64,000 bases of DNA from a phage, in NCBI GenBank assembly GCA_011839185.1, contig GCA_011839185.1_3918.1; one strand, given 5' to 3'. Shown here piece by piece: positions 24,725 through 46,837 of the stretch; position 1 is the stretch's first letter, and the number at the start of each line of letters is the position of its first letter. Made by a program: the position numbers and the translations under genes. The notes beneath the pieces are model-generated. The model saw only the letters and a list, made by a program, of their open reading frames with translations, was not told the DNA's origin and searched no databases.

Positions 24725-25267
24725 ATGAAATGCTATCACGGAACTACTCAAGAAAATTTCCTCAACCTGATTAATAACGGTGATAAACCATCAGGCGCAT
24801 GGAATTGTTCGGATATGGACGGCAATTTTTACGTGTATCCAGAAAATAAAATCTATGGCGACGATGAGGAAGAGATAACATCAGAAGGCATCCAGCAAGC
24901 TCTAGGCAATGCCACTATCACCGCAGCTTTTCAGATGAAGACTCAAAATATTGTTATCTTAGAACTCGATATTCCAGAGGATGAGCTGAATGACGATTAT
25001 TCTTGTGATAATATGTCGAGTGTAGCAAGTTTTACAGAGTACTTTGATGTAAATTGGATTAAAAAGGTCTATACAACAGAGTTTAACGCTATGTATTCAC
25101 CTTTTTGTCTTCCTTCATTGGATAACCCAAATTTAAACTATCTTGATGAGTCTCTGGAGCTTCTTGCTAAAAGTGTCCAACAGTCGGACAGTATTCAGGT
25201 TTTTTGTGACATCATGGATACACTGACAGGGAACATTGCAGAAGAGGATTTAAAGAGCTTTTTCTAA
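24725..25267 (+). CDS. hypothetical acidic protein
   Basis: 180 aa behind a type-I cassette. Confidence 0.55.
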   Translation: MKCYHGTTQENFLNLINNGDKPSGAWNCSDMDGNFYVYPENKIYGDDEEEITSEGIQQALGNATITAAFQMKTQNIVILELDIPEDELNDDYSCDNMSSVASFTEYFDVNWIKKVYTTEFNAMYSPFCLPSLDNPNLNYLDESLELLAKSVQQSDSIQVFCDIMDTLTGNIAEEDLKSFF

Positions 25268-25300
25268 AAACCTATGCAATCACCTTATAAACACTAATTA

Positions 25301-25320
25301 GCCCCTTGTAGGGGCTTTTA
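25301..25320 (+). terminator. terminator-like hairpin
   Basis: GCCCC-TTGTA-GGGGC followed by TTTTA. Confidence 0.5.
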
Positions 25321-25333
25321 GAGGACTTAAATC

Positions 25334-25567
25334 ATGCTTACAACCATTTATCTCATCCTTTCCATTTGTAACGGCCATTCATGCGATTTTAAAGGGCTTG
25401 AGGAGTTCACAGGAAGTAAAGAAAATGCCATTCAAGTTTGTCAGATAGCAAGGCAAGACTATCCCGCCAGTGATGACATACAATGCTACTTTAAGACAGA
25501 AGATGAAGAAGGCATTTATTTTGATAGTGTTGACGGTCAATATGAAATTATCATTGAAAAAGACTAG
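25334..25567 (+). CDS. small protein with N-terminal hydrophobic segment
   Basis: ORF track 77 aa. Confidence 0.45.
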   Translation: MLTTIYLILSICNGHSCDFKGLEEFTGSKENAIQVCQIARQDYPASDDIQCYFKTEDEEGIYFDSVDGQYEIIIEKD

Positions 25568-25603
25568 ACAAGCCTGATAAAAGCTTGTAGAGTGTCAATC
25601 AAC

Positions 25604-38865: not shown

Positions 38866-38894
38866 TTGACAATGTGTTTAATACCCTTTAATAT
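38866..38894 (+). promoter_or_regulatory. sigma70-like promoter
   Basis: TTGACA, 17-nt spacer, TAATAT. Confidence 0.5.
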
Positions 38895-39011: not shown

Positions 39012-39088
39012 CTCTGTTTAGCTCAGCTTGGTAGAGCGTTCCGTTTGGGGCGGTAAGGCCGGAGGTTCAAGTCCTCCAACAGAGACCA
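39012..39088 (+). tRNA. tRNA-Pro (anticodon TGG)
   Basis: manual cloverleaf: acceptor CTCTGTT/AACAGAG, D-arm GCTCAGCTTGGTAGAGC, T-arm GGAGGTTCAAGTCCTCC, encoded CCA. Confidence 0.8.
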
Positions 39089-39095
39089 AATTAAT

Positions 39096-39173
39096 GTTCC
39101 AGTGGACAAAATGGTAAAGTCACCACTCTTTCAAAGTGGATATTTGAGGGTTCAAATCCCTTCTGGAACGCCA
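39096..39173 (+). tRNA. tRNA-Glu (anticodon TTC)
   Basis: acceptor GTTCCAG/CTGGAAC, anticodon arm CCACT-CTTTCAA-AGTGG, T-loop TTCAAAT, encoded CCA. Confidence 0.75.
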
Positions 39174-39180
39174 GTTTTGA

Positions 39181-39253
39181 CAGAAGACCAATTACAGCAA
39201 ACTTAATCTTATTCATCTGAAGGTAAATCGGACAAAGAAGAGATTTGGTCTGG
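39181..39253 (+). ncRNA. candidate structured element A (hairpin with conserved bulged closing stem)
   Basis: 5' CAGAAGACCAAT ... ATTTGGTCTGG 3'; AT-rich ~48-nt interior; one of four related elements. Confidence 0.35.
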
Positions 39254-39264
39254 TCATTAAGAAT

Positions 39265-39341
39265 TGCGGGTATAGAGAAAGGGCGTCTCACATGTCTCAT
39301 TAGCATGGTATCGGCAGGTTCGACTCCTGCACCCGCCTCCA
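39265..39341 (+). tRNA. tRNA with CAT anticodon (Met or Ile2)
   Basis: acceptor TGCGGGT/ACCCGCC with 1-72 mismatch, anticodon arm CATGT-CTCATTA-GCATG, T-arm GCAGGTTCGACTCCTGC, encoded CCA. Confidence 0.65.
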
Positions 39342-39347
39342 AATTTA

Positions 39348-39411
39348 CAGAAGACCGTTTACAGCAATATTTATTAAATTTTTAGCGGAAAAATTGAAAG
39401 ATACGGTCTGG
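39348..39411 (+). ncRNA. candidate structured element B
   Basis: 5' CAGAAGACCGTTTACAGCAA ... ACGGTCTGG 3'. Confidence 0.35.
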
Positions 39412-39424
39412 TAATACTAAACAT

Positions 39425-39501
39425 GGTTAGGAAGCACATAAGGTATGTGCGGTCGCCTGTTAAGCGAATGGCACAGGGTTCGAATCCCTGACTAACCGCC
39501 A
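39425..39501 (+). tRNA. tRNA-Asn (anticodon GTT)
   Basis: acceptor GGTTAGG/ACTAACC, D-arm GCACATAAGGTATGTGC, loop CTGTTAA, T-arm CAGGGTTCGAATCCCTG, encoded CCA. Confidence 0.75.
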
Positions 39502-39570
39502 AATTTAGGAGAGAAGCGATTGCTCACCGATTTGTAAGGTGCAAGTCCTTAGCCTGAATAGAAATCAAAT

Positions 39571-39658
39571 GTGTCGTTATCCCGTAGATGGTAGCGGTGG
39601 GGACTGTAAATCCCTTGTCATTGAGACTCGGTAGGTTCGACTCCTACACGGCACACCA
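39571..39658 (+). tRNA. tRNA-Tyr (anticodon GTA), long variable arm
   Basis: 88 nt; acceptor GTGTCGT/ACGGCAC, loop CTGTAAA, T-arm GTAGGTTCGACTCCTAC, encoded CCA. Confidence 0.75.
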
Positions 39659-39663
39659 ATAAA

Positions 39664-39741
39664 GGTTATGTAGTTTAATTTGGTTAAAATACTCCCCTGT
39701 CACGGGAGATGATGAGGGTTCAAATCCCTTCGTAACCGCCA
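39664..39741 (+). tRNA. tRNA-Asp (anticodon GTC)
   Basis: acceptor GGTTATG/CGTAACC, arm CTCCC-CTGTCAC-GGGAG, T-arm GAGGGTTCAAATCCCTT, encoded CCA. Confidence 0.8.
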
Positions 39742-39769
39742 ATTTTGAGAGGGCTATTTAGCCCCTCCC

Positions 39770-39797
39770 TTAAAGGGTTCTTACGAGTATCCTTTAA
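39770..39797 (+). promoter_or_regulatory. conserved hairpin with GTTCTTACGAG loop (copy 1 of 4)
   Basis: TTAAAGG-GTTCTTACGAGTAT-CCTTTAA. Confidence 0.4.
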
Positions 39798-39802
39798 AGG
39801 AG

Positions 39803-39876
39803 CAGAAGACCAAATACAGCAAGTTACTTAAAATTTCAAGCCAATTTAATTTTGAAAAATTTAAAACTTGGTCTGG
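39803..39876 (+). ncRNA. candidate structured element C
   Basis: 5' CAGAAGACCAAATACAGCAA ... CTTGGTCTGG 3'. Confidence 0.35.
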
Positions 39877-39889
39877 CTCAACAAATTTA

Positions 39890-40020
39890 CAGAAGACCGT
39901 TTACAGCAAAACTTAAACAATCTATTTCTCGGTAAAGAAAAGGCGAAGGTTCGATTCCTTCACTCGGCAGATGTCGAGTTGGTGTAATGGTAGCACTTAA
40001 GATGATAAACAACGGTCTGG
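39890..40020 (+). ncRNA. candidate structured ncRNA D: closing stem as A-C, enclosing a permuted tRNA-like module
   Basis: CAGAAGACCGTT ... AACGGTCTGG; inside in order: T-arm GAAGGTTCGATTCCTTC, 7-bp acceptor-like hairpin ACTCGGC-AGAT-GTCGAGT, D-arm GTGTAATGGTAGCAC. Confidence 0.45.
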
Positions 40021-40021
40021 T

Positions 40022-40165
40022 AATTATCTTTGTAGATAAGTTATTAAGCTTACCTGTGAGTATGCGACCACAAAGGGTGAAAGGGTAAATTCTAGATTTA
40101 AACCTAAAAAGGCACATCGCTACAGACCTTAAGCAAGTCTGGGTAGCTTATCTACAAAGATAATT
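40022..40165 (+). repeat. long inverted repeat (19-bp perfect arms) enclosing about 106 nt
   Basis: AATTATCTTTGTAGATAAG (40022-40040) and its exact reverse complement (40147-40165). Confidence 0.6.
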
Positions 40166-40169
40166 TAAT

Positions 40170-40245
40170 GGAAGTGTAGCAGAATGGTGATGCGGCAGAC
40201 TTTTAATCTGACAGGCGATGGGTTCGAATCCCTCCACTTCTACCA
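40170..40245 (+). tRNA. tRNA-Lys (anticodon TTT)
   Basis: acceptor GGAAGTG/CACTTCT, loop CTTTTAA, T-loop TTCGAAT, encoded CCA; T-stem imperfect in my parse. Confidence 0.65.
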
Positions 40246-40323
40246 AATTCACCCTTAACTGAGAAACACCTGCGCGGCTGGAAACACCCACTCAACAGTT
40301 TCTCTAACTAGGGTACTTATTCT

Positions 40324-40400
40324 GGTTCAGTCGCAGATAAGGTAATGCAAGGGTCTCATAAGCCCTATGAATGTGGGTTCGATTCCCATCTGAACCTCCA
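40324..40400 (+). tRNA. tRNA with CAT anticodon (Met, fMet or Ile2)
   Basis: acceptor GGTTCAG/CTGAACC, anticodon stem with three G-C pairs (AGGGT/GCCCT), loop CTCATAA, T-arm GTGGGTTCGATTCCCAT, encoded CCA. Confidence 0.7.
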
Positions 40401-40416
40401 ATTCGTTGGTGATATT

Positions 40417-40902
40417 ATGTTTTGTGCTAATAAAGATTGTGACAACAAAGCCGTTAAAGGTGGAAAGTATTGTTCACGCTCTTGTGCTGCAAGGGTAAAC
40501 AACAAGAGTCATCCAAAAAGAAGACAAGAAGGCTCTTGTCATTCATGTGGAAAGCAGACACCAAAATCAAGAAAGTATTGTGATGAATGTATTTCAAATG
40601 GTATTCTGAAACAATACAAAAACCCCGATGAAGAAAAGAAAGCGAAGTCACAACACGTTAAAAAGTCTCGTGACAAACTTAAGAGGGTTTTAGTTGATTA
40701 CAAAGGTGGTTGTTGCTCAATTTGTGGATACAATAAGTGCATAAAGGCTTTAGAGTTTCACCACTTAGACCCTAATACAAAGGACTTCACAGTAGGACAA
40801 AAACACTTCTCTATAGAGGTAATGAAGTCTGAAGTTGATAAGTGTGTATTACTGTGTGCAAATTGCCACAGAGAGGTACACGAAGGGGTAACAAAGCTGT
40901 GA
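40417..40902 (+). CDS. HNH homing-endonuclease-like protein with N-terminal zinc ribbons (start trimmed past the tRNA)
   Basis: C-terminal EFHHLDP...LLCANCHREVH HNH motif; several CxxC pairs; ORF-track start 40345 lies inside the tRNA. Confidence 0.65.
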   Translation: MFCANKDCDNKAVKGGKYCSRSCAARVNNKSHPKRRQEGSCHSCGKQTPKSRKYCDECISNGILKQYKNPDEEKKAKSQHVKKSRDKLKRVLVDYKGGCCSICGYNKCIKALEFHHLDPNTKDFTVGQKHFSIEVMKSEVDKCVLLCANCHREVHEGVTKL

Positions 40903-40971
40903 AAGCACATATGGATGTGCATTCGGCTGATAACCGAAAGGCAGAAGGTTCGAATCCTTCTCACAGTACCA
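40896..40971 (+). tRNA. tRNA-Ile (anticodon GAT)
   Basis: acceptor GCTGTGA/TCACAGT, D-arm GCACATATGGATGTGC, arm TTCGG-CTGATAA-CCGAA, T-arm GAAGGTTCGAATCCTTC, encoded CCA; first 7 nt overlap the HNH stop codon. Confidence 0.75.
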
Positions 40972-40986
40972 ATTTCAATAAAGTTG

Positions 40987-41015
40987 TTGACATTGAGATG
41001 TGACTACTTTATAGT
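40987..41015 (+). promoter_or_regulatory. sigma70-like promoter inside the tRNA array
   Basis: TTGACA, 17-nt spacer, TATAGT. Confidence 0.55.
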
Positions 41016-41182
41016 AACCTTAGTTTTCGTTGCGTAGCGTCTATTTTGCAAATTTAAAATAAATGCAAACGACAATGTTTTTCTGGCAGTAGCTTGATAG
41101 GCTAAACACCAGTGAGGTCTTCCAATCCCTCATCAAAGAATTTGGCGTACTCGCCCACGGTATGATTAATAAGGTGGGCATC

Positions 41183-41210
41183 TTTAAGGGCTTTCTAAGA
41201 GAGTCTTTAA
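41183..41210 (+). promoter_or_regulatory. conserved hairpin-motif variant (copy 2 of 4)
   Basis: GGCTTTCTAAGAGAGTCTTTAAAG, about 10 nt upstream of tRNA-Arg. Confidence 0.3.
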
Positions 41211-41218
41211 AGATTAAT

Positions 41219-41295
41219 GCACCCTTAGTTCAACTGGACAGAGCAAATGACTTCTAATCATTGAGTTACAGGTTCGAATCCTGTAGGGTGTGCCA
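41219..41295 (+). tRNA. tRNA-Arg (anticodon TCT)
   Basis: acceptor GCACCCT/AGGGTGT, arm AATGA-CTTCTAA-TCATT, T-arm ACAGGTTCGAATCCTGT, encoded CCA. Confidence 0.8.
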
Positions 41296-41437
41296 ATTAG
41301 TTAGCAGATTACTTAGACGACCTTATCGGGTCTCCGTGTAAGGAGGTGGTCTGTATCTCATGTTTTCCAGAACATGTAAATAATCTGAGAAGGGGCTTTA
41401 CAGTGTTGAGATAACAGGGTAAGCTTCGAATTATAGT

Positions 41438-41520
41438 ATGGGACGATGTTAAGACTCTAAGGCATGAGCAACGGCTTCCAACACCGTTTCAAAGGGGTTC
41501 AACTCCTCCGTCCCATGCCA
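41438..41520 (+). tRNA. atypical tRNA-like gene, anticodon CCA (Trp-type), about 7 extra nt between acceptor and D-arm
   Basis: 3' two-thirds parse canonically (arm ACGGC-TTCCAAC-ACCGT, T-loop TTCAACT, acceptor GTCCCAT, CCA) but the complementary 5' acceptor sits 7 nt too far upstream. Confidence 0.3.
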
Positions 41521-41533
41521 AAGTCTTATTAGG

Positions 41534-41621
41534 GGTAGGTAGCGGCTAATGGTAGCCAAACTGTCTTGAAAACAGTTGCCACTGTAGAGATACGGTGAGG
41601 GTTCGACTCCTTTACTTACCG
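41534..41621 (+). tRNA. tRNA-Ser (anticodon TGA), long variable arm
   Basis: 88 nt; acceptor GGTAGGT/ACTTACC, 3-bp D-stem, arm ACTGT-CTTGAAA-ACAGT, T-loop TTCGACT; no encoded CCA. Confidence 0.65.
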
Positions 41622-41843
41622 CCTAATAAGATTTAAAGCCAAGCTTCATTCGGATGTTGCTTTGGTATCCCTCGTGTATTGTCGTACACACTGATAAAGC
41701 ACCTAGTAGGTGTCACGGAGAAGAGATAATATCAAGCTCTCCAAAGGTTCTAGTCACCGGATTAAACAAGACTATGCAAAGACCTATTTAGGTCTTTTTA
41801 GAGGGCTTCTAAGGTTATTACAGCTTGTTGTGGAACCTTGTTG

Positions 41844-41868
41844 CTTAGGTTCTTAGAAGTTCTCTAAA
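41844..41868 (+). promoter_or_regulatory. conserved hairpin-motif variant (copy 3 of 4)
   Basis: TTAGGTTCTTAGAAGTTCTCTAA, about 10 nt upstream of a tRNA. Confidence 0.3.
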
Positions 41869-41878
41869 AAGATTTAAT

Positions 41879-41955
41879 GCACCTATAGCCCAACTGGTAG
41901 AGGCAGCAGACTTAGAATCTGCTCAGTGTGAGTTCGAATCTCTCTAGGTGTACCA
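41879..41955 (+). tRNA. tRNA with Leu anticodon TAG, class-I-length variable loop
   Basis: perfect anticodon stem GCAGA/TCTGC with loop CTTAGAA; Leu-like D-loop AACTGGTAGA; discriminator A; 5-nt variable loop. Confidence 0.6.
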
Positions 41956-41962
41956 AATTAAT

Positions 41963-42038
41963 GCAGGTGTAGCAAAATGGTTATGCGGCTGACTCTTAAT
42001 CAGTAAGACGATGGGTTCAATTCCCTCCACCTGTACCA
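41963..42038 (+). tRNA. tRNA-Lys (anticodon CTT)
   Basis: acceptor GCAGGTG/CACCTGT, loop CTCTTAA, T-loop TTCAATT, encoded CCA. Confidence 0.65.
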
Positions 42039-42044
42039 AACATT

Positions 42045-42120
42045 GGGGTCATAGTTTATATGGTTAAAATTCGAGTTTTGCAAACTTGGGAACTGAGTTC
42101 AATTCTCAGTGACTCCACCA
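42045..42120 (+). tRNA. tRNA-Ala (anticodon TGC)
   Basis: acceptor GGGGTCA/TGACTCC with G3-U70 wobble (Ala identity element), loop TTTGCAA, T-arm CTGAGTTCAATTCTCAG, encoded CCA. Confidence 0.8.
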
Positions 42121-42125
42121 ATTAG

Positions 42126-42201
42126 TGCATCCATAGTTTAAACGGGAAAATTACAGTCTTCCAAACTGAGGTTGAGGGTTCGATTCCCTCTGGATGCTCC
42201 A
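42126..42201 (+). tRNA. tRNA-Gly (anticodon TCC)
   Basis: acceptor GCATCCA/TGGATGC, loop CTTCCAA, T-arm GAGGGTTCGATTCCCTC, encoded CCA. Confidence 0.75.
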
Positions 42202-42208
42202 AATTAAT

Positions 42209-42284
42209 GCTCCTATCGTATAATTGGCTATTACGGTTGCCTTGTAAGCAACTTATCAGGGTTCGAATCCTTGTGGGAGCACCA
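42209..42284 (+). tRNA. tRNA-Thr (anticodon TGT)
   Basis: acceptor GCTCCTA/TGGGAGC, arm GTTGC-CTTGTAA-GCAAC, T-arm CAGGGTTCGAATCCTTG, encoded CCA. Confidence 0.8.
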
Positions 42285-42287
42285 ATT

Positions 42288-42376
42288 CAGAGGTCAAGTG
42301 AAAGACCGCTTTGAGTCAACTGAAGACCGTAACAAATTCCACGGAGTTGAGTTAGCGGCACAACTCCAGACCTCTT
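42288..42376 (+). ncRNA. candidate structured element E between tRNA-Thr and tRNA-Val
   Basis: 7-bp closing stem AGAGGTC/GACCTCT enclosing an internal hairpin GGAGTTG...CAACTCC and a GAAGACCG word shared with elements B and D. Confidence 0.3.
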
Positions 42377-42380
42377 TCAT

Positions 42381-42455
42381 ACTCGCTTAGTTTATATGGT
42401 AAAACATCACCCTTACAAGATGAAGAAAAAGGTTCAAGTCCTTTAGTGAGTACCA
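42381..42455 (+). tRNA. tRNA-Val (anticodon TAC)
   Basis: acceptor ACTCGCT/AGTGAGT, loop CTTACAA, T-arm AAAGGTTCAAGTCCTTT, encoded CCA. Confidence 0.7.
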
Positions 42456-42456
42456 T

Positions 42457-42534
42457 GTTCCAGTATCCCAATTGGCAGAGGATGCAAGCTCAAACCTTGT
42501 ACTAGTGACGGTTCGAATCCGTCTTGGAACACCA
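42457..42534 (+). tRNA. tRNA with Leu anticodon CAA, class-I-length variable loop
   Basis: acceptor GTTCCAG/TTGGAAC, Leu-like D-loop CAATTGGCAGA, loop CTCAAAC, T-arm GACGGTTCGAATCCGTC, discriminator A, encoded CCA. Confidence 0.55.
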
Positions 42535-42539
42535 ATTTT

Positions 42540-42615
42540 GCAGGATTAGTTCAAATGGATAGAGCAACAGTCTACGAAGCTGTTAGTAGGGGTTCGAATC
42601 CCTTATCCTGCGCCA
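42540..42615 (+). tRNA. tRNA-Arg (anticodon ACG)
   Basis: acceptor GCAGGAT/ATCCTGC, arm ACAGT-CTACGAA-GCTGT, T-loop TTCGAAT, encoded CCA. Confidence 0.75.
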
Positions 42616-42633
42616 GATAAGCAAGAGGAATTT

Positions 42634-42876
42634 ATGCAAACATTAATCGTCGTTGAACATGAAAATCCCAACAGTATTGAGTTTGTAAGGGTTCCCACTA
42701 TAGATACTCACATTTTCTTGAAAGTCGGATGGGAATGCGACCCGATAAAAGTAGGAAAATTTCTTGGTCATTACTTTGGTGGAAGACAATTTAAAAGTAT
42801 CAATTTTGAGACAGTATTACCAGAAAACTCAGAAACAGACAATAATACTTACCTCCTTACGAGGATTAGACAATGA
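42634..42876 (+). CDS. hypothetical protein inside the tRNA array
   Basis: ORF track 80 aa; does not overlap any tRNA. Confidence 0.45.
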   Translation: MQTLIVVEHENPNSIEFVRVPTIDTHIFLKVGWECDPIKVGKFLGHYFGGRQFKSINFETVLPENSETDNNTYLLTRIRQ

Positions 42877-43430
42877 GATACTTAAAATATGTTTCATGGA
42901 TTTTCTTAGCTTTGTTAGAACCATTTGCAGCAACCCTAGCAGTCATCTTAGCACCTTTCGTAGTTCCATTCTACAGTGAGAAGAAAGGGCATCTACCTTT
43001 TGGATTCAGATGGATGGAGACCTATGACAACCCTATTGATGGTGACAAAGGCCACGTTGAGAGATGGGCTAAGATTAGAAAGATTGGTAAGCTTGGTGTC
43101 TACATGCAGAGAGTTGGATGGCTCTGGAGAAACAAAGCTTATAACTTCTCTTACCATGTATTAGGAAGAGATGTAAAAGACGTTACTAAGTGGAAAGGTA
43201 ATATCAACGTAAGTTCTAACCCTGAAGATAATCAAACAGGTTATCTCCTAATGTGGAATAGCAATGCTTGGGGATTATTTGCTTTTATCCCATCAATTAA
43301 AGTCTTTGGTAAACAGTTTTACTGGAGAATTTATATTGGATGGAAACTAAAAAGTGTTGTCCCAGAAGAAAGAGCATTCTCAAGGGAAAGAGTTATGTTG
43401 GCATTCTTTATTCATCCACTGAGAAAGTAA
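42873..43430 (+). CDS. hypothetical protein with N-terminal hydrophobic segment
   Basis: 185 aa; Trp/aromatic-rich; start overlaps the upstream stop. Confidence 0.5.
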   Translation: MRYLKYVSWIFLALLEPFAATLAVILAPFVVPFYSEKKGHLPFGFRWMETYDNPIDGDKGHVERWAKIRKIGKLGVYMQRVGWLWRNKAYNFSYHVLGRDVKDVTKWKGNINVSSNPEDNQTGYLLMWNSNAWGLFAFIPSIKVFGKQFYWRIYIGWKLKSVVPEERAFSRERVMLAFFIHPLRK

Positions 43431-43438
43431 AGATTTAA

Positions 43439-43514
43439 AGGGGATTAGTTTACAAGGTTAAAACCTCGGTCTTTGAAATCGAAGAAGTTGGTTCAATTCC
43501 AACATCCCCCGCCA
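43439..43514 (+). tRNA. tRNA-Gln (anticodon TTG)
   Basis: acceptor AGGGGAT/ATCCCCC with weak 1-72 pair, arm TCGGT-CTTTGAA-ATCGA, T-arm GTTGGTTCAATTCCAAC, encoded CCA. Confidence 0.7.
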
Positions 43515-43516
43515 AT

Positions 43517-43595
43517 GCTCCATTACTCCAATTGGCAGAGAGGCCAGACTTAAAATCTGTGTTATGTATCGGTTCGAATCCGATATGGAGTACCA
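43517..43595 (+). tRNA. tRNA with Leu anticodon TAA, short variable loop
   Basis: acceptor GCTCCAT/ATGGAGT, Leu-like D-loop CAATTGGCAGA, loop CTTAAAA, T-arm ATCGGTTCGAATCCGAT, discriminator A, encoded CCA; anticodon stem imperfect. Confidence 0.5.
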
Positions 43596-43600
43596 AATTT

Positions 43601-43675
43601 AGCGGTATAGCATAACTGGCAATGCAACAGTCTCTGAAGCTGTCCTATTAAGGTTCAAATCCTTATGCCGCTGCC
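43601..43675 (+). tRNA. tRNA-Gln (anticodon CTG)
   Basis: acceptor AGCGGTA/TGCCGCT, arm ACAGT-CTCTGAA-GCTGT, T-arm TAAGGTTCAAATCCTTA, encoded CCA. Confidence 0.7.
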
Positions 43676-43680
43676 ACTTC

Positions 43681-43704
43681 TAAGGGTTCTTACGAGAGTC
43701 CTTA
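43681..43704 (+). promoter_or_regulatory. conserved hairpin with GTTCTTACGAG loop (copy 4 of 4)
   Basis: TAAGG-GTTCTTACGAGAGT-CCTTA just upstream of tRNA-His. Confidence 0.4.
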
Positions 43705-43707
43705 AAT

Positions 43708-43783
43708 GTGGCCTTATCATAAATGGTAATGACCCATGCTGTGAACATGGTCTATACGGGTTCAAATCCCGTAGGTCACCCCA
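43708..43783 (+). tRNA. tRNA-His (anticodon GTG)
   Basis: acceptor GTGGCCT/AGGTCAC, arm CCATG-CTGTGAA-CATGG, T-arm ACGGGTTCAAATCCCGT, discriminator C, encoded CCA; no encoded G at -1. Confidence 0.7.
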
Positions 43784-43789
43784 ATTTAT

Positions 43790-43865
43790 AGTCCAAGTAG
43801 CTTATATGGTTAAAGCGCGTGTCTGAAAAACATGAGAAGAGGGTTCAAATCCCACTGGACTACCA
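43790..43865 (+). tRNA. tRNA-Phe (anticodon GAA)
   Basis: D-arm GCTTATATGGTTAAAGC, arm CGTGT-CTGAAAA-ACATG, T-loop TTCAAAT, CCA; acceptor pairing imperfect so ends are approximate. Confidence 0.6.
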
Positions 43866-43881
43866 ATTTCAAAGGTGCTTA

Positions 43882-44616
43882 ATGAAAGAGATGACAGAAC
43901 AAGGTAAGGAGATTTTTAATCTCTTAAAAACCGGTAAAGGGTTCTCTAACCCACTTATTACTGGTGCAGCAGTTCTCGGTGGAACCGTAGCTGCTTCTAC
44001 ATCACTTGTAAGCTCTATTAGTTCTGTAACAGACCCTACAATGAAGGAGAAACTTGTTGCTGCTGGACTTACAACAGTCCTTCTAAACAGCTTTACAACA
44101 AGCCTTACAAGCACTACAGCAACTACTAAGACCCTAACAGACTACGGTCAAAAGTCTATTGATGAGTTTTCATCACGTATGCAGGTAGCAAAGGGATACT
44201 CCAATGTTATGGGTGCAGCAGGAGAACAAGTTGGTTGTACACCATTCAGTGGTATTATGGGTGTTGCTACAGAGTATGGTCAAAAAGCTATTGACATGAT
44301 GAACAGTACACTAGATAGTGTTAATGGTGTGTTAAGTGACTTACAAGATGCTATTGACAAAGGTCTTGATACTATTTCTGATTTAGCTGAGCAAGCTGTT
44401 AGTAAGATTAATGAAGGTATTTCAAAAATTACAGCTTATGCAGATGAAGTTGTGCAGATGATTGAAGAAGAAGCTGCTCTTATTGCAGAGTACCTTAAAA
44501 CGAATATCAATGGGTTCTTAGCAGGTATCTTACCAGACTGGTTTGATGATGCCTGTAAAACTGGTGTAATTGACACTATTGCAACACCAGAAATGAAGAA
44601 CGCATTACAGAAATAA
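43882..44616 (+). CDS. hypothetical protein (Ser/Thr-rich segment then helical region; start trimmed past tRNA-Phe)
   Basis: ATG at 43882 preceded by AAAGGTG; ORF-track start 43819 lies inside the tRNA. Confidence 0.5.
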   Translation: MKEMTEQGKEIFNLLKTGKGFSNPLITGAAVLGGTVAASTSLVSSISSVTDPTMKEKLVAAGLTTVLLNSFTTSLTSTTATTKTLTDYGQKSIDEFSSRMQVAKGYSNVMGAAGEQVGCTPFSGIMGVATEYGQKAIDMMNSTLDSVNGVLSDLQDAIDKGLDTISDLAEQAVSKINEGISKITAYADEVVQMIEEEAALIAEYLKTNINGFLAGILPDWFDDACKTGVIDTIATPEMKNALQK

Positions 44617-44618
44617 AT

Positions 44619-44711
44619 GGAAGATTAACCCTAAAAGGTAAGGGAGCAGTTTGCTAAACTGCCAGTAGCTGAGAAATCGGTGTACCAGTTCAAGTCTGGT
44701 ATCTTCCTCCA
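44619..44711 (+). tRNA. tRNA-Ser (anticodon GCT), long variable arm
   Basis: 93 nt; acceptor GGAAGAT/ATCTTCC, arm GCAGT-TTGCTAA-ACTGC, T-arm ACCAGTTCAAGTCTGGT, encoded CCA. Confidence 0.75.
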
Positions 44712-44715
44712 ATTT

Positions 44716-44791
44716 GAATCCGTGACAGAAATGGCTATGTGCCTGTCTGCAAAACAGGTTTATAAGGGTTCGAGTCCCTTCGGATTCTCCA
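44716..44791 (+). tRNA. tRNA-Cys (anticodon GCA)
   Basis: acceptor GAATCCG/CGGATTC, arm CCTGT-CTGCAAA-ACAGG, T-arm AAGGGTTCGAGTCCCTT, encoded CCA. Confidence 0.8.
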
Positions 44792-45220: not shown

Positions 45221-46837
45221 TTGCGGAGGTGCTTAATGGACTTAAATGCTGTTAAGCAGAAGCGAGTGGAAGATGTTAGGAAAGTCCTAGCTGGAGAGTT
45301 GGGGCTCTCTGATGAAGTAAAAGAAATTATCAAATCATTCGGTAAAGACCCCTCTAAATTCCTTCCAACTCAAATTCTGACTTTATTAAGATACACACCA
45401 GACCAAGTTAGACTTATCTTCAAATTGATGACTGATAAGAATTATGTAGCCCCTCAGCCGGGTTCTCAAGAGGTCTTTTTAAATACTAATGCTGACTTGG
45501 TTCTCTATGGTGGTGCTGCTGGTGCTGGTAAAACTGCTGCATTGTTAATGGATTCTTTAAGGTTTATTGAAGACCCTAACTATAATGCTGTATATTTCCG
45601 TCGAAATACAACACAGCTACAAGGTGGTTTATGGCCTGCTGCAAAGAAACTATTTGGTAAGTTTGGTGGGATTCCTCACGAGCAGAAAATGACTATCACA
45701 TTCCCTTCTGGGGCAACTATCAAGTTTACCTACCTAGAACTTGAAAAGCACGCTGAAGGTCATCAGGGTATTGAATACTCAGCTATTTACTTTGACGAAG
45801 GTACACACTTCTCTGCTTCACAGATTTCATACCTACAAACCCGTCTACGTTCTGGTGCTGAAGGTGATTCATACATGAAGATTTCCATGAACCCAGACAG
45901 AGACCACTTTATTTACGATTGGGTAGAGCCATTCTTAGATGAAGAAGGCTATCCAGACCCTGAAAAATGTGGTCGTATTCGTTGGTATGTAATGAACGAT
46001 GGTGTGATGGTTTCTGATTGGGAGAGAGACAAGATTCTTGAAATGTTCCCTCTTGAGATTCCTCAAACATACACCTTTATCTCTGGTACGATTGATGATA
46101 ACCCAATCCTTGACTTCTTAGAGCCTAAGTACCGTGGTAAGTTGGAAAACAACACCCCTGTAAACGTTGCAAGACTTCGTTTCGGTAACTGGAAGGCTCG
46201 TGCAGAAGGTTCAAACTATTGGCAAAGGCAATGGTGTGAGATTGTTGATTCACTCCCAGAAGATGTATTTGATGTTAGAGCGTGGGACTTAGCAGCAACT
46301 TTACCATCTGAGATTAACCCTAATCCAGACTGGACAGCAGGTGTTAAGATGGGTAAATCTAAAAAAGACGGTTGCTATTATATCATTGATGTAGTAAGAT
46401 TTAGAGATAGACCCTCTGGAGTCGAAACACAAATTAATTTGACTGCTGAAAGTGACGGTAAGCGAACTGGTATTTTTATCCCTCAAGACCCAGGCGCTGC
46501 TGGTAAATCCTACGCAACATCCCTCATCAGGAAACTTGCCGAGAAAGGTTATCGTGCAAGAGCTAAACCAACAAATAAAGATAAAGTTACCCGCTTTGCG
46601 GGATTTTCTGCTGCTTCTGAGGCTGGACTTGTAAAAGTCTTGAGAGGTAGTTGGAACGAAGCTTATTTTCAAGAGCTTGAAGGCTTTTGTGGTGATGGCA
46701 AAACTAAAGATGACCAAGTGGATGCTACCAGTGATGCTTTCAACAGTCTTAACGAAGTTAAATTATTCAAGCCACCATCAATGGGTGCTCACACAGACTT
46801 AGTGAGAGGAAACCCATATGAGGGGCTTAGACGTTGA
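45221..46837 (+). CDS. terminase large subunit
   Basis: 538 aa; Walker A LYGGAAGAGKT; Walker-B-like IYFDEG; position ahead of the portal gene. Confidence 0.8.
   Translation: MRRCLMDLNAVKQKRVEDVRKVLAGELGLSDEVKEIIKSFGKDPSKFLPTQILTLLRYTPDQVRLIFKLMTDKNYVAPQPGSQEVFLNTNADLVLYGGAAGAGKTAALLMDSLRFIEDPNYNAVYFRRNTTQLQGGLWPAAKKLFGKFGGIPHEQKMTITFPSGATIKFTYLELEKHAEGHQGIEYSAIYFDEGTHFSASQISYLQTRLRSGAEGDSYMKISMNPDRDHFIYDWVEPFLDEEGYPDPEKCGRIRWYVMNDGVMVSDWERDKILEMFPLEIPQTYTFISGTIDDNPILDFLEPKYRGKLENNTPVNVARLRFGNWKARAEGSNYWQRQWCEIVDSLPEDVFDVRAWDLAATLPSEINPNPDWTAGVKMGKSKKDGCYYIIDVVRFRDRPSGVETQINLTAESDGKRTGIFIPQDPGAAGKSYATSLIRKLAEKGYRARAKPTNKDKVTRFAGFSAASEAGLVKVLRGSWNEAYFQELEGFCGDGKTKDDQVDATSDAFNSLNEVKLFKPPSMGAHTDLVRGNPYEGLRR

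Follow-up and report, generated by a model that had tools for sequence, protein, structure and literature searches.

Why a predicted endonuclease gene should lie wedged between two transfer RNA (tRNA) genes, with its stop codon inside the second of them, is the question raised by one locus in the 64,000-nucleotide (nt) stretch of phage DNA analyzed here (contig GCA_011839185.1_3918.1 of NCBI GenBank assembly GCA_011839185.1; the whole stretch is hereafter called the window). The open reading frame (ORF) in question is flanked by a tRNA gene with a CAT anticodon and by a tRNA-Ile gene. An earlier note on this DNA, made from the sequence alone, had assigned it as an HNH endonuclease gene inserted at this position, the translation of which shares sequence with the maturing tRNA-Ile. 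Having compared the locus with those of related phages, we consider the element probably a free-standing HNH homing endonuclease gene, i.e., a selfish mobile element, a well-supported reading reached in silico in which both nuclease activity and homing are predicted.

The locus and its empty sites

The window belongs to a Felixounavirus (Felix O1-like phage) of the Ounavirinae. The region matches 283 phage records, nearly all of them from Felixounavirus phages of Escherichia, Salmonella, and Shigella, the best-matching record being that of the Escherichia phage KEP3 (98.9%). Across the locus, the sequence runs ...CTCCA (40400) ATTCGTTGGTGATATT ATG (40417) ... GTA ACA AAG CTG TGA (40900-40902), the ATG beginning at the 17th nt past the end of tRNA(CAT). 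On the ORF, its two tRNA flanks, and this start position, ARAGORN, Rfam, and the sequence itself agree with the earlier note (Table 1). The final 7 nt of the ORF, GCTGTGA (40896-40902), are nt 1-7 of tRNA-Ile, where they form the 5′ strand of the acceptor stem (paired with TCACAGT) and encode the third base of Lys160, Leu161, and the stop, with the TGA occupying nt 5-7. Over this 7-nt overlap, the earlier proposal of sequence shared between the translation of the HNH gene and the maturation of tRNA-Ile is literally true.

Table 1. Features of the HNH locus in the window and the alternative tRNA-Ile(GAT) alleles found at the same slot
Feature	Position	Strand	Basis and remarks
tRNA, CAT anticodon (Met or lysidine-Ile2)	40324..40400	+	ARAGORN; Rfam RF00005 40324..40397, 55.6 bits, without CCA
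Inserted 493-nt segment: 16-nt leader and ORF without its own stop	40401..40893	.	Empty-site alignment, REP5 and KhF3 phages
Shine-Dalgarno-like GGTGA, 4 nt 5′ of the ATG	40408..40412	+	Sequence; kept in Felix O1 phage and locus L092 (GGTGATACTTATG)
HNH endonuclease ORF, 161 amino acids, stop TGA 40900-40902	40417..40902	+	Sequence, PHROG match, homologues
N-terminal cysteine-rich region, residues 3-58	40423..40590	+	Cysteine conservation in 27 homologues; model
HNH (beta-beta-alpha-metal) nuclease domain, residues 100-156	40714..40884	+	Motif, alignment, model, Foldseek
tRNA-Ile(GAT), allele A	40896..40971	+	ARAGORN; Rfam RF00005 40896..40968, 60.0 bits, without CCA; begins GCTGTGAAAGCAC; 47 records, 12 with the HNH gene
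tRNA-Ile(GAT), allele B	L003 1803-1878		Begins GCTGGTATAGTTAAG; at least 90 records, 0 with the HNH gene
tRNA-Ile(GAT), allele C	L105 6454-6525		Begins TGTGGGTTAGCAT; 105 records, 0 with the HNH gene

The mechanical ORF listing includes an earlier start at 40345, inside tRNA(CAT). The start at 40417 is backed by the GGTGA, the N-termini of homologues (M-x-C-x-N...), and the annotation in Felix O1 phage, and longer calls starting inside the upstream tRNA, such as the 212-amino-acid database representative P0001, are over-extensions. The gene lies between two complete tRNA genes, and no intron family was found at the locus by Rfam, either at the gathering threshold or at E≤1; a sub-threshold RNA search of the gaps of the tRNA cluster likewise returned nothing relevant. 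The tRNA(CAT) gene is identical in relatives with and without the insert, and pairwise comparison of 40324-40400 left the Met and Ile2 identities undistinguished. In the Felix O1 RefSeq record (NC_005282 ~24936-25012; L002 ~1651-1727), the CAT tRNA 5′ of the corresponding gene, ORF44, is unannotated, and its sequence is identical to that of the window. The tRNA-Ile of the window displays an A in place of the near-universal U at position 8, together with a G1-U72 wobble pair.

In relatives without the gene, the tRNA(CAT) and tRNA-Ile genes lie 1-2 nt apart, with junctions of CCA-AA-GCTGTGA, CCA-AT-GCTGTGA, CCA-A- (before tRNA-Ile allele B), and CCA-AT- (before allele C); the empty site of REP5 phage is CCA-AA-GCTGTGA and that of KhF3 phage is CCA-A-GCTGGTA. 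The junction survey covered 16 IMG/VR loci. Against these empty sites, the window carries 493 extra nt, the left border of which is the 3′ CCA of tRNA(CAT) (40398-40400). A 3-nt repeat, CAA, flanks the insert (40399-40401 and 40892-40894), and its borders are therefore ambiguous by ±2 nt. Given that the tRNA-Ile is identical in the empty-site phage REP5, the stop codon is part of the target sequence, and the element brings none. The comparison with related phages thus yielded precise empty sites, as an insertion would leave.

The gene is carried by 12 of ~283 related phage records (~4%), the others being empty, and most Felixounaviruses are viable without it; the locus is accordingly not identical in all relatives, whereas identity throughout, with no empty-site variants, was what the earlier note had said would overturn its view. 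Eleven of the 283 records cover at least 80% of the region, while the twelfth carrier ends at the record end. Two types of the gene are distinguished: that of the window, found in the KEP3, Henu11, and Henu12 phages (97-100% nt identity), and a second type (83-85% nt identity) found in the Felix O1 (two records), FO1a, garuso, L27, Sl26, S.Kent 1-2-1, MET-P1-301, and OPT-SAL01 phages. Of the 12 copies, nine are whole and uninterrupted and span hosts and continents; two others give alignments split into two segments, and the last is truncated where its record ends. The tRNAs flanking the gene are identical between the two types despite a synonymous divergence (dS) of 0.53 between them. The wider flanks differ, in that the window has a 78-nt spacer separating tRNA-Lys from tRNA(CAT) that Felix O1 phage lacks. 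This spacer (40246-40323, following tRNA-Lys(TTT)) is also present in the KEP3 and KhF3 phages and is replaced by a 4-nt spacer in the REP5, Felix O1, and VpaE1 phages, a polymorphism that is independent of the HNH gene.

Paralogues of the gene occupy other tRNA spacers sporadically. One of these, ORF47 of Felix O1 phage (37% identity; L113 1900-2328), occupies the Gly/Thr spacer, where its TAA stop lies in a duplicated target TTAA, 1 nt before tRNA-Thr. The Gly/Thr spacer of the window (42202-42208, AATTAAT, 7 nt) is the empty site for ORF47. The Felixounavirus tRNA cluster is an insertion hotspot for HNH genes.

The encoded protein and the linked tRNA-Ile alleles

The assignment of the ORF as an HNH endonuclease held up on family matches, motif, and predicted fold. 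PHROG HNH families match the ORF (phrog_2255, HNH endonuclease, E 2e-33), and 2492 database homologues of the protein were recovered at E≤1e-5, many of which carry PF01844. The HNH motif reads C100xxC103 ... H115 H116 ... N149 in C147-A-N-C150-H151 ... H155, with two CxxC zinc-binding pairs accompanying the catalytic H...N...H residues, and its residues are invariant or nearly so among both 7 and 27 homologues. Cysteines 3, 8, 19, 23, 41, 44, 55, and 58 are likewise invariant or nearly invariant among the 27 homologues, and this N-terminal region probably represents two zinc ribbons with a putative role in DNA binding. The AlphaFold2 model (mean predicted local distance difference test score, pLDDT, of 90.7; 79-92 across residues 3-58) comprises two N-terminal cysteine-rich modules, a long helix, and a C-terminal beta-beta-alpha unit, the strands (112-116 and 143-147) and helix (148-156) of which form the beta-beta-alpha-metal fold. 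The best Foldseek matches in the PDB are all HNH domains, namely those of Cap5 (probability 0.97), T4 endonuclease VII, Gme HNH, and Cas9 HNH. A sequence search of the PDB gave weak matches (E ~0.06), including a motif-for-motif alignment with the HNH domain of a group II intron maturase.

The protein is identical (100%) in KEP3 phage and shares 81% identity with that of Felix O1 ORF44. The ratio of nonsynonymous to synonymous divergence (dN/dS) is 0.19 at a dS of 0.53 compared to the Felix O1-type copy, with the same value in both halves of the protein, and the gene is under purifying selection. The PHROG match, the dN/dS, and the number of homologues exclude a chance ORF.

No sigma70-like promoter or terminator was found between tRNA-Lys and the ORF (40245-40417), which suggests that the gene is probably transcribed within the tRNA precursor. 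The promoter scan as a whole was at chance level (16 sites vs. 16.6 expected), with promoter-like sites noted 5′ of the cluster at 38866 and 38956 and after tRNA-Ile at 40987-41015. The last of these (TTGACA-17-TATAGT, 11/12 consensus) is conserved in all relatives and may start a new transcription unit within the cluster.

Purifying selection is also consistent with a domesticated phage factor, be it a packaging helper, an anti-competitor nuclease, or a factor of the tRNA operon. HNH proteins assisting terminases exist in other phages, and the tRNA cluster of the window lies just 5′ of the large terminase gene, which begins at 45221. This explanation is improbable in our view, given that only ~4% of related genomes carry the gene and most Felixounaviruses dispense with it, that the empty sites are precise, that paralogues are sporadic in other tRNA spacers, that the gene lacks a promoter of its own, and that ~4.3 kb and 17 tRNA genes separate it from the terminase gene.

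In Felixounaviruses, a single slot with identical flanks is filled by one of three tRNA-Ile(GAT) genes that are less than 65% alike, and all three score as tRNAs (62.3 and 63.4 bits for alleles B and C) and look functional. Allele A is that of REP5 phage, allele B that of the KhF3 and wV8 phages, and allele C that of VpaE1 phage. The HNH gene is found with allele A only, in 12 of 47 records compared to 0 of at least 195 for alleles B and C combined (Fisher p 8e-10, a value that overstates the evidence as the records are phylogenetically non-independent). Because 40-nt junction probes find exact variants only (10 for allele A with AA, 90 for allele B), the counts for alleles A and C were taken from whole-tRNA probes, and the 90 for allele B is a lower bound. 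At the sequence level, the linkage to allele A fits the pattern that would be expected from co-conversion of the flank during homing. In alleles B and C, a gene joined in the same phase would meet a TAG stop at nt 8-10, formed by U8-A9-G10.

A number of these observations weigh against a homing element. Beside the non-independence of the records, a single acquisition with later losses would account equally well for both the linkage to allele A and the sporadic distribution. The empty allele-A spacers, AA and AT, are the same dinucleotides as those in which the two gene types end (..ACAAA|G and ..ACAAT|G), and gene-free allele-A sites may thus be deletions rather than naive targets; either each gene type entered its own spacer variant, or the empty allele-A sites are precise deletions. 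The Pfam cut-offs were not reached (PF01844, 14.1 vs. 21.4 bits; PF21368, 14.1 vs. 23), the Foldseek E-values are weak (~0.03), and the copies in the MET-P1-301 and OPT-SAL01 phages align in two pieces, suggesting that some copies may be decaying. Given the sub-threshold Pfam scores and an NCBIfam search of the protein that gave no match, the HNH identity therefore rests on PHROGs, motif, and fold.

Homing endonuclease genes cycle through decay, and the two fragmented copies among the 12 and the lack of an own promoter are in keeping with an ORF that is an unexpressed, decaying relic with an overlap of no consequence. We regard this as very improbable for the window, where the dN/dS of 0.19 extends over both protein halves, the catalytic and zinc residues are all intact, and the ribosome-binding site is conserved, while nine intact copies exist across hosts and continents. 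A homing endonuclease gene thus remains our preferred reading of the element.

The overlap with tRNA-Ile

The inserted unit is minimal, consisting of a 16-nt leader with a ribosome-binding site and an ORF reaching the last nt of the insert, the translation of which runs 7 nt into tRNA-Ile and terminates at the TGA of the acceptor stem. Promoterless, the gene would be transcribed as part of the tRNA precursor. Cutting by ribonuclease P (RNase P) at 40895/40896, i.e., at +1 of tRNA-Ile, would then leave an HNH message ending in ...GUA ACA AA without a stop codon, and normal protein would arise from unprocessed precursor only, keeping a potentially toxic nuclease at a low level. During co-infection, the nuclease would be expected to cut gene-free genomes near the site, and repair would bring in the gene along with tRNA-Ile allele A, to which it is linked. 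Any regulatory effect of the overlap is inferred from the arrangement itself and is less firm than the identity of the element, as the overlap could be the result of neutral compaction. A selected gating role for the overlap is possible, if on the unlikely side. No hairpin occluding the ribosome-binding site was found at 40398-40480, where the fold is no more stable than shuffled sequence (z +1.1), and a hairpin of the kind predicted for T4 segB was rejected on these grounds.

Homologues in unrelated phages share the arrangement. They end inside tRNA-Ala in the Klebsiella phage AmPh_EK80, tRNA-Ile in the T5-like Salmonella phage Kenya-K36, tRNA-Lys in the Salmonella phage NINP13076 and the Erwinia phage pEp_SNUABM_01, tRNA-Gly in the cyanophage S-RIM50, and tRNA-Asn in the IMG/VR locus L076. 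The closest homologue outside the Felix O1-like phages, P0003 (51% identity), also ends inside tRNA-Asn. The phages concerned include T5-like phages, Sugarlandvirus, Vequintavirinae, a cyanophage, and metagenomic phages. In all seven independent junctions of this short form, nt 1 of the tRNA is the third base of a codon (7/7, chance ~0.0014), with stops at tRNA nt 8-10 (TAG, once TGA) or, in the Felix-type tRNA-Ile, at nt 5-7. The stop at nt 5-7 goes with the A, in place of U, at tRNA position 8. A constant spacing between the final His codon and the tRNA was rejected, as this spacing measures 14, 17, or 20 nt and the phase alone is constant.

A longer relative (HNH, zinc-ribbon, and helix-turn-helix, ending ...GVSDNAVRKRL) is fused at its 3′ end to various tRNAs, including tRNA-Thr (three junction variants), Val, Lys, Asp, and Met, in small IMG/VR contigs (L020-L070). 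These junctions occur in all three phases, with +1 of the tRNA 2-5 codons past the conserved RKRL, and the tails vary, ending at the first available stop 8-23 nt into the tRNA. The presence of a near-identical long-form protein at different tRNAs suggests one lineage hopping between tRNA genes. ARAGORN calls of tRNA-Phe in L025-L031 (start AAAAAG) look spurious and were left unused as junctions. Separately, the C-terminal tails of some homologues (P0018 and L088, such as ...AGLEPAT...) resemble the product of reading on into a tRNA gene of opposite orientation, which would be a further kind of proximity to tRNA genes.

Across 80 IMG/VR loci, 15 of 55 distinct ORFs with an HNH motif end inside a tRNA on the same strand, compared to 14 of 402 other ORFs (odds ratio 10, p 5e-8), and several of the latter resemble pieces of endonuclease genes. 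The preceding tRNA lies anywhere from 10 to ~800 nt upstream, while the downstream junction is always tight; insertion beside an upstream CCA is thus not a general rule. Of three further close homologues, P0003 lies in a tRNA cluster with the same overlap, and P0032 and P0063 have no nearby tRNA. The association of homologues with tRNAs is frequent, not universal. We found no description of the overlap as a general pattern in the papers that could be searched.

These junctions bear on whether the overlap has been selected or is a neutral by-product of compaction, in which trimming deletions remove the stop codon of the gene without harm, since the 5′ regions of tRNAs hold early stops. We give the neutral explanation slightly less than an even chance. 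It draws on the long form, fused to tRNA-Thr, Val, Lys, Asp, and Met in three phases with variable tails; on the non-HNH ORFs that also end inside tRNAs (14/402); and on the residues encoded by the tRNA, which are not conserved. True overlap is not required, as the stops of ORF47 (1 nt before tRNA-Thr) and T4 segB (5 nt before tRNA-Arg) indicate, and neither a hairpin over the ribosome-binding site nor another sign of elaborate control was found. Set against it are the shared phase of the seven short-form junctions, the tenfold enrichment of HNH over other ORFs, and the persistent lack of an own stop codon, one mutation away, in lineages at a dS above 0.5. The shared phase is the only one that yields an early stop in almost any tRNA, and selection for a short tail would therefore explain the phase bias as well; for this reason, the opposing points do not exclude neutral compaction. 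Neither the neutral nor the gating reading alters the identity of the element, and neutral compaction is compatible with a homing endonuclease gene.

A broader and, to our minds, unlikely proposition is that the stop within a tRNA is a selected design which has arisen repeatedly in the homing endonuclease genes of tRNA arrays, with nuclease output set by a race between translation and maturation, and with the elements possibly driving the turnover of tRNA alleles. The notion of repeated origin stems from the occurrence of the arrangement in no fewer than two HNH subfamilies and also in T5.069, an unrelated gene of T5 phage. If true, the turnover of tRNA alleles by such elements would account for the three tRNA-Ile alleles and for the gene being tied to one of them.

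For annotation, the gain is that the ORF is a mobile HNH gene which most relatives lack, that it starts at 40417 and not inside the upstream tRNA (cf. P0001), and that the flanking CAT tRNA and tRNA-Ile are both intact. The locus also presents a simple, testable example of a selfish element with expression that may be coupled to the processing of tRNAs, and genes of this type may help explain the fast change of phage tRNA sets and alleles. As both ideas are already present in brief in the T4 and T5 literature, the gain is incremental, and a short follow-up would best be spent on the repeated overlap in one phase and on the linkage to allele A.

Comparison with known systems

The gene is of a known kind, being already annotated in the type phage Felix O1, with a precedent for its arrangement in T5 phage and a near precedent in T4 phage. 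Felix O1 ORF44 (Felix01p085, NP_944863.2, annotated as 'HNH endonuclease') is the orthologue, with 81% amino acid and 85% nt identity, the same insertion site, and the same 7-nt overlap in RefSeq (coding sequence 25030..25515, tRNA-Ile 25509..25584). It differs in belonging to the other subclade (dS 0.53) and in its junction codon, ATG (Met) compared to AAG (Lys) in the window. The Felix O1 cluster differs further in lacking the 78-nt Lys/Met spacer and in carrying two more HNH paralogues. Six HNH copies are noted in the paper on the Felix O1 genome, which discusses neither the overlap nor the empty sites (PMC3185647).

The tRNA cluster of the window (39012-44791) holds 26 tRNA genes, as predicted by ARAGORN, and several of its features stand apart from the HNH gene. 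The tRNA-Arg(TCT) (41219) and tRNA-Ser(TGA) (41534) of the window are absent from Felix O1 phage, in which the counterpart of 40972-41878 (L113 186-1575) contains the HNH gene ORF45 (46% identity over the HNH domain) and ORF46. In KEP3 phage, ~88 nt more than in the window lie 3′ of tRNA-Ile (~41014-41018; a match of 1282 nt vs. 1194 nt, in two pieces). A second CAT-anticodon tRNA (39265-39341) has the acceptor stem TGCGGGT...ACCCGCC with 1:72 unpaired, and it is probably an initiator, given the resemblance of this stem to that of the T5 initiator tRNA-fMet. Two further ORFs, 42873-43430 and 43819-44616, stop 8 nt before tRNA-Gln (43439) and 2 nt before tRNA-Ser (44619), respectively, tightly packed against these tRNAs without overlap.

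In T5 phage, hegD, hegC, and T5.069 end 23, 14, and 24 nt inside tRNA-Gln2, tRNA-Ser2, and tRNA-Asn, respectively (RefSeq), and hegC and hegD resemble the window gene as free-standing nuclease genes inside a phage tRNA cluster. Homology to the heg genes was rejected, as blastp of hegA, C, D, E, and T5.069 gave no significant match to the window protein (best E 0.007 over 55 amino acids, hegA only). The domain order of the heg proteins also differs, with an N-terminal nuclease motif and a C-terminal helix-turn-helix, and T5.069 is not HNH. The T5-like phage Kenya-K36 does have a gene truly homologous to that of the window, and it ends in tRNA-Ile. The T5.069 product (NC_005859; L106 9007-9525), annotated as hypothetical, displays a GIY-YIG/T5orf172-like motif, YKIGMSQNPKERL, and the gene may itself be a tRNA-cluster endonuclease gene. 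The T5 F-Tfl enzymes are reportedly described in Akulenko 2004, as cited in PMC2330249.

SegB of T4 phage is a proven tRNA-cluster homing endonuclease, which recognizes a T-arm motif and cleaves tRNA genes at their 3′ ends; it is transcribed within the tRNA precursor and co-converts neighboring tRNA genes (PMC2330249). Negative control of segB has been proposed, in which maturation of tRNA-Arg cleaves the transcript between the last codon and the stop codon, and lowered expression via processing of the tRNA precursor has been proposed for both T4 segB and the T5 F-Tfl endonucleases (PMC2330249). SegB is a GIY-YIG enzyme, in contrast to the HNH protein of the window, and a hairpin over its ribosome-binding site is predicted, whereas none is found in the window gene. 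In the T4 record, the TAA stop of segB lies 5 nt before +1 of tRNA-Arg and does not truly overlap the mature tRNA; segB was thus rejected as an exact precedent and stands as a near case only.

The tRNA punctuation of mitochondria offers a further comparison, where the excision of tRNAs sets the ends of mRNAs and stop codons depend on the position of the cut. There, polyadenylation after the cut completes the stop codon, while in the phage locus cutting would remove it. By analogy of arrangement, i.e., a nuclease gene in a tRNA operon with its 3′ end at or inside a tRNA, we would group the window gene functionally with T5 hegC and hegD and T4 segB, as a probable counterpart and not a relative.

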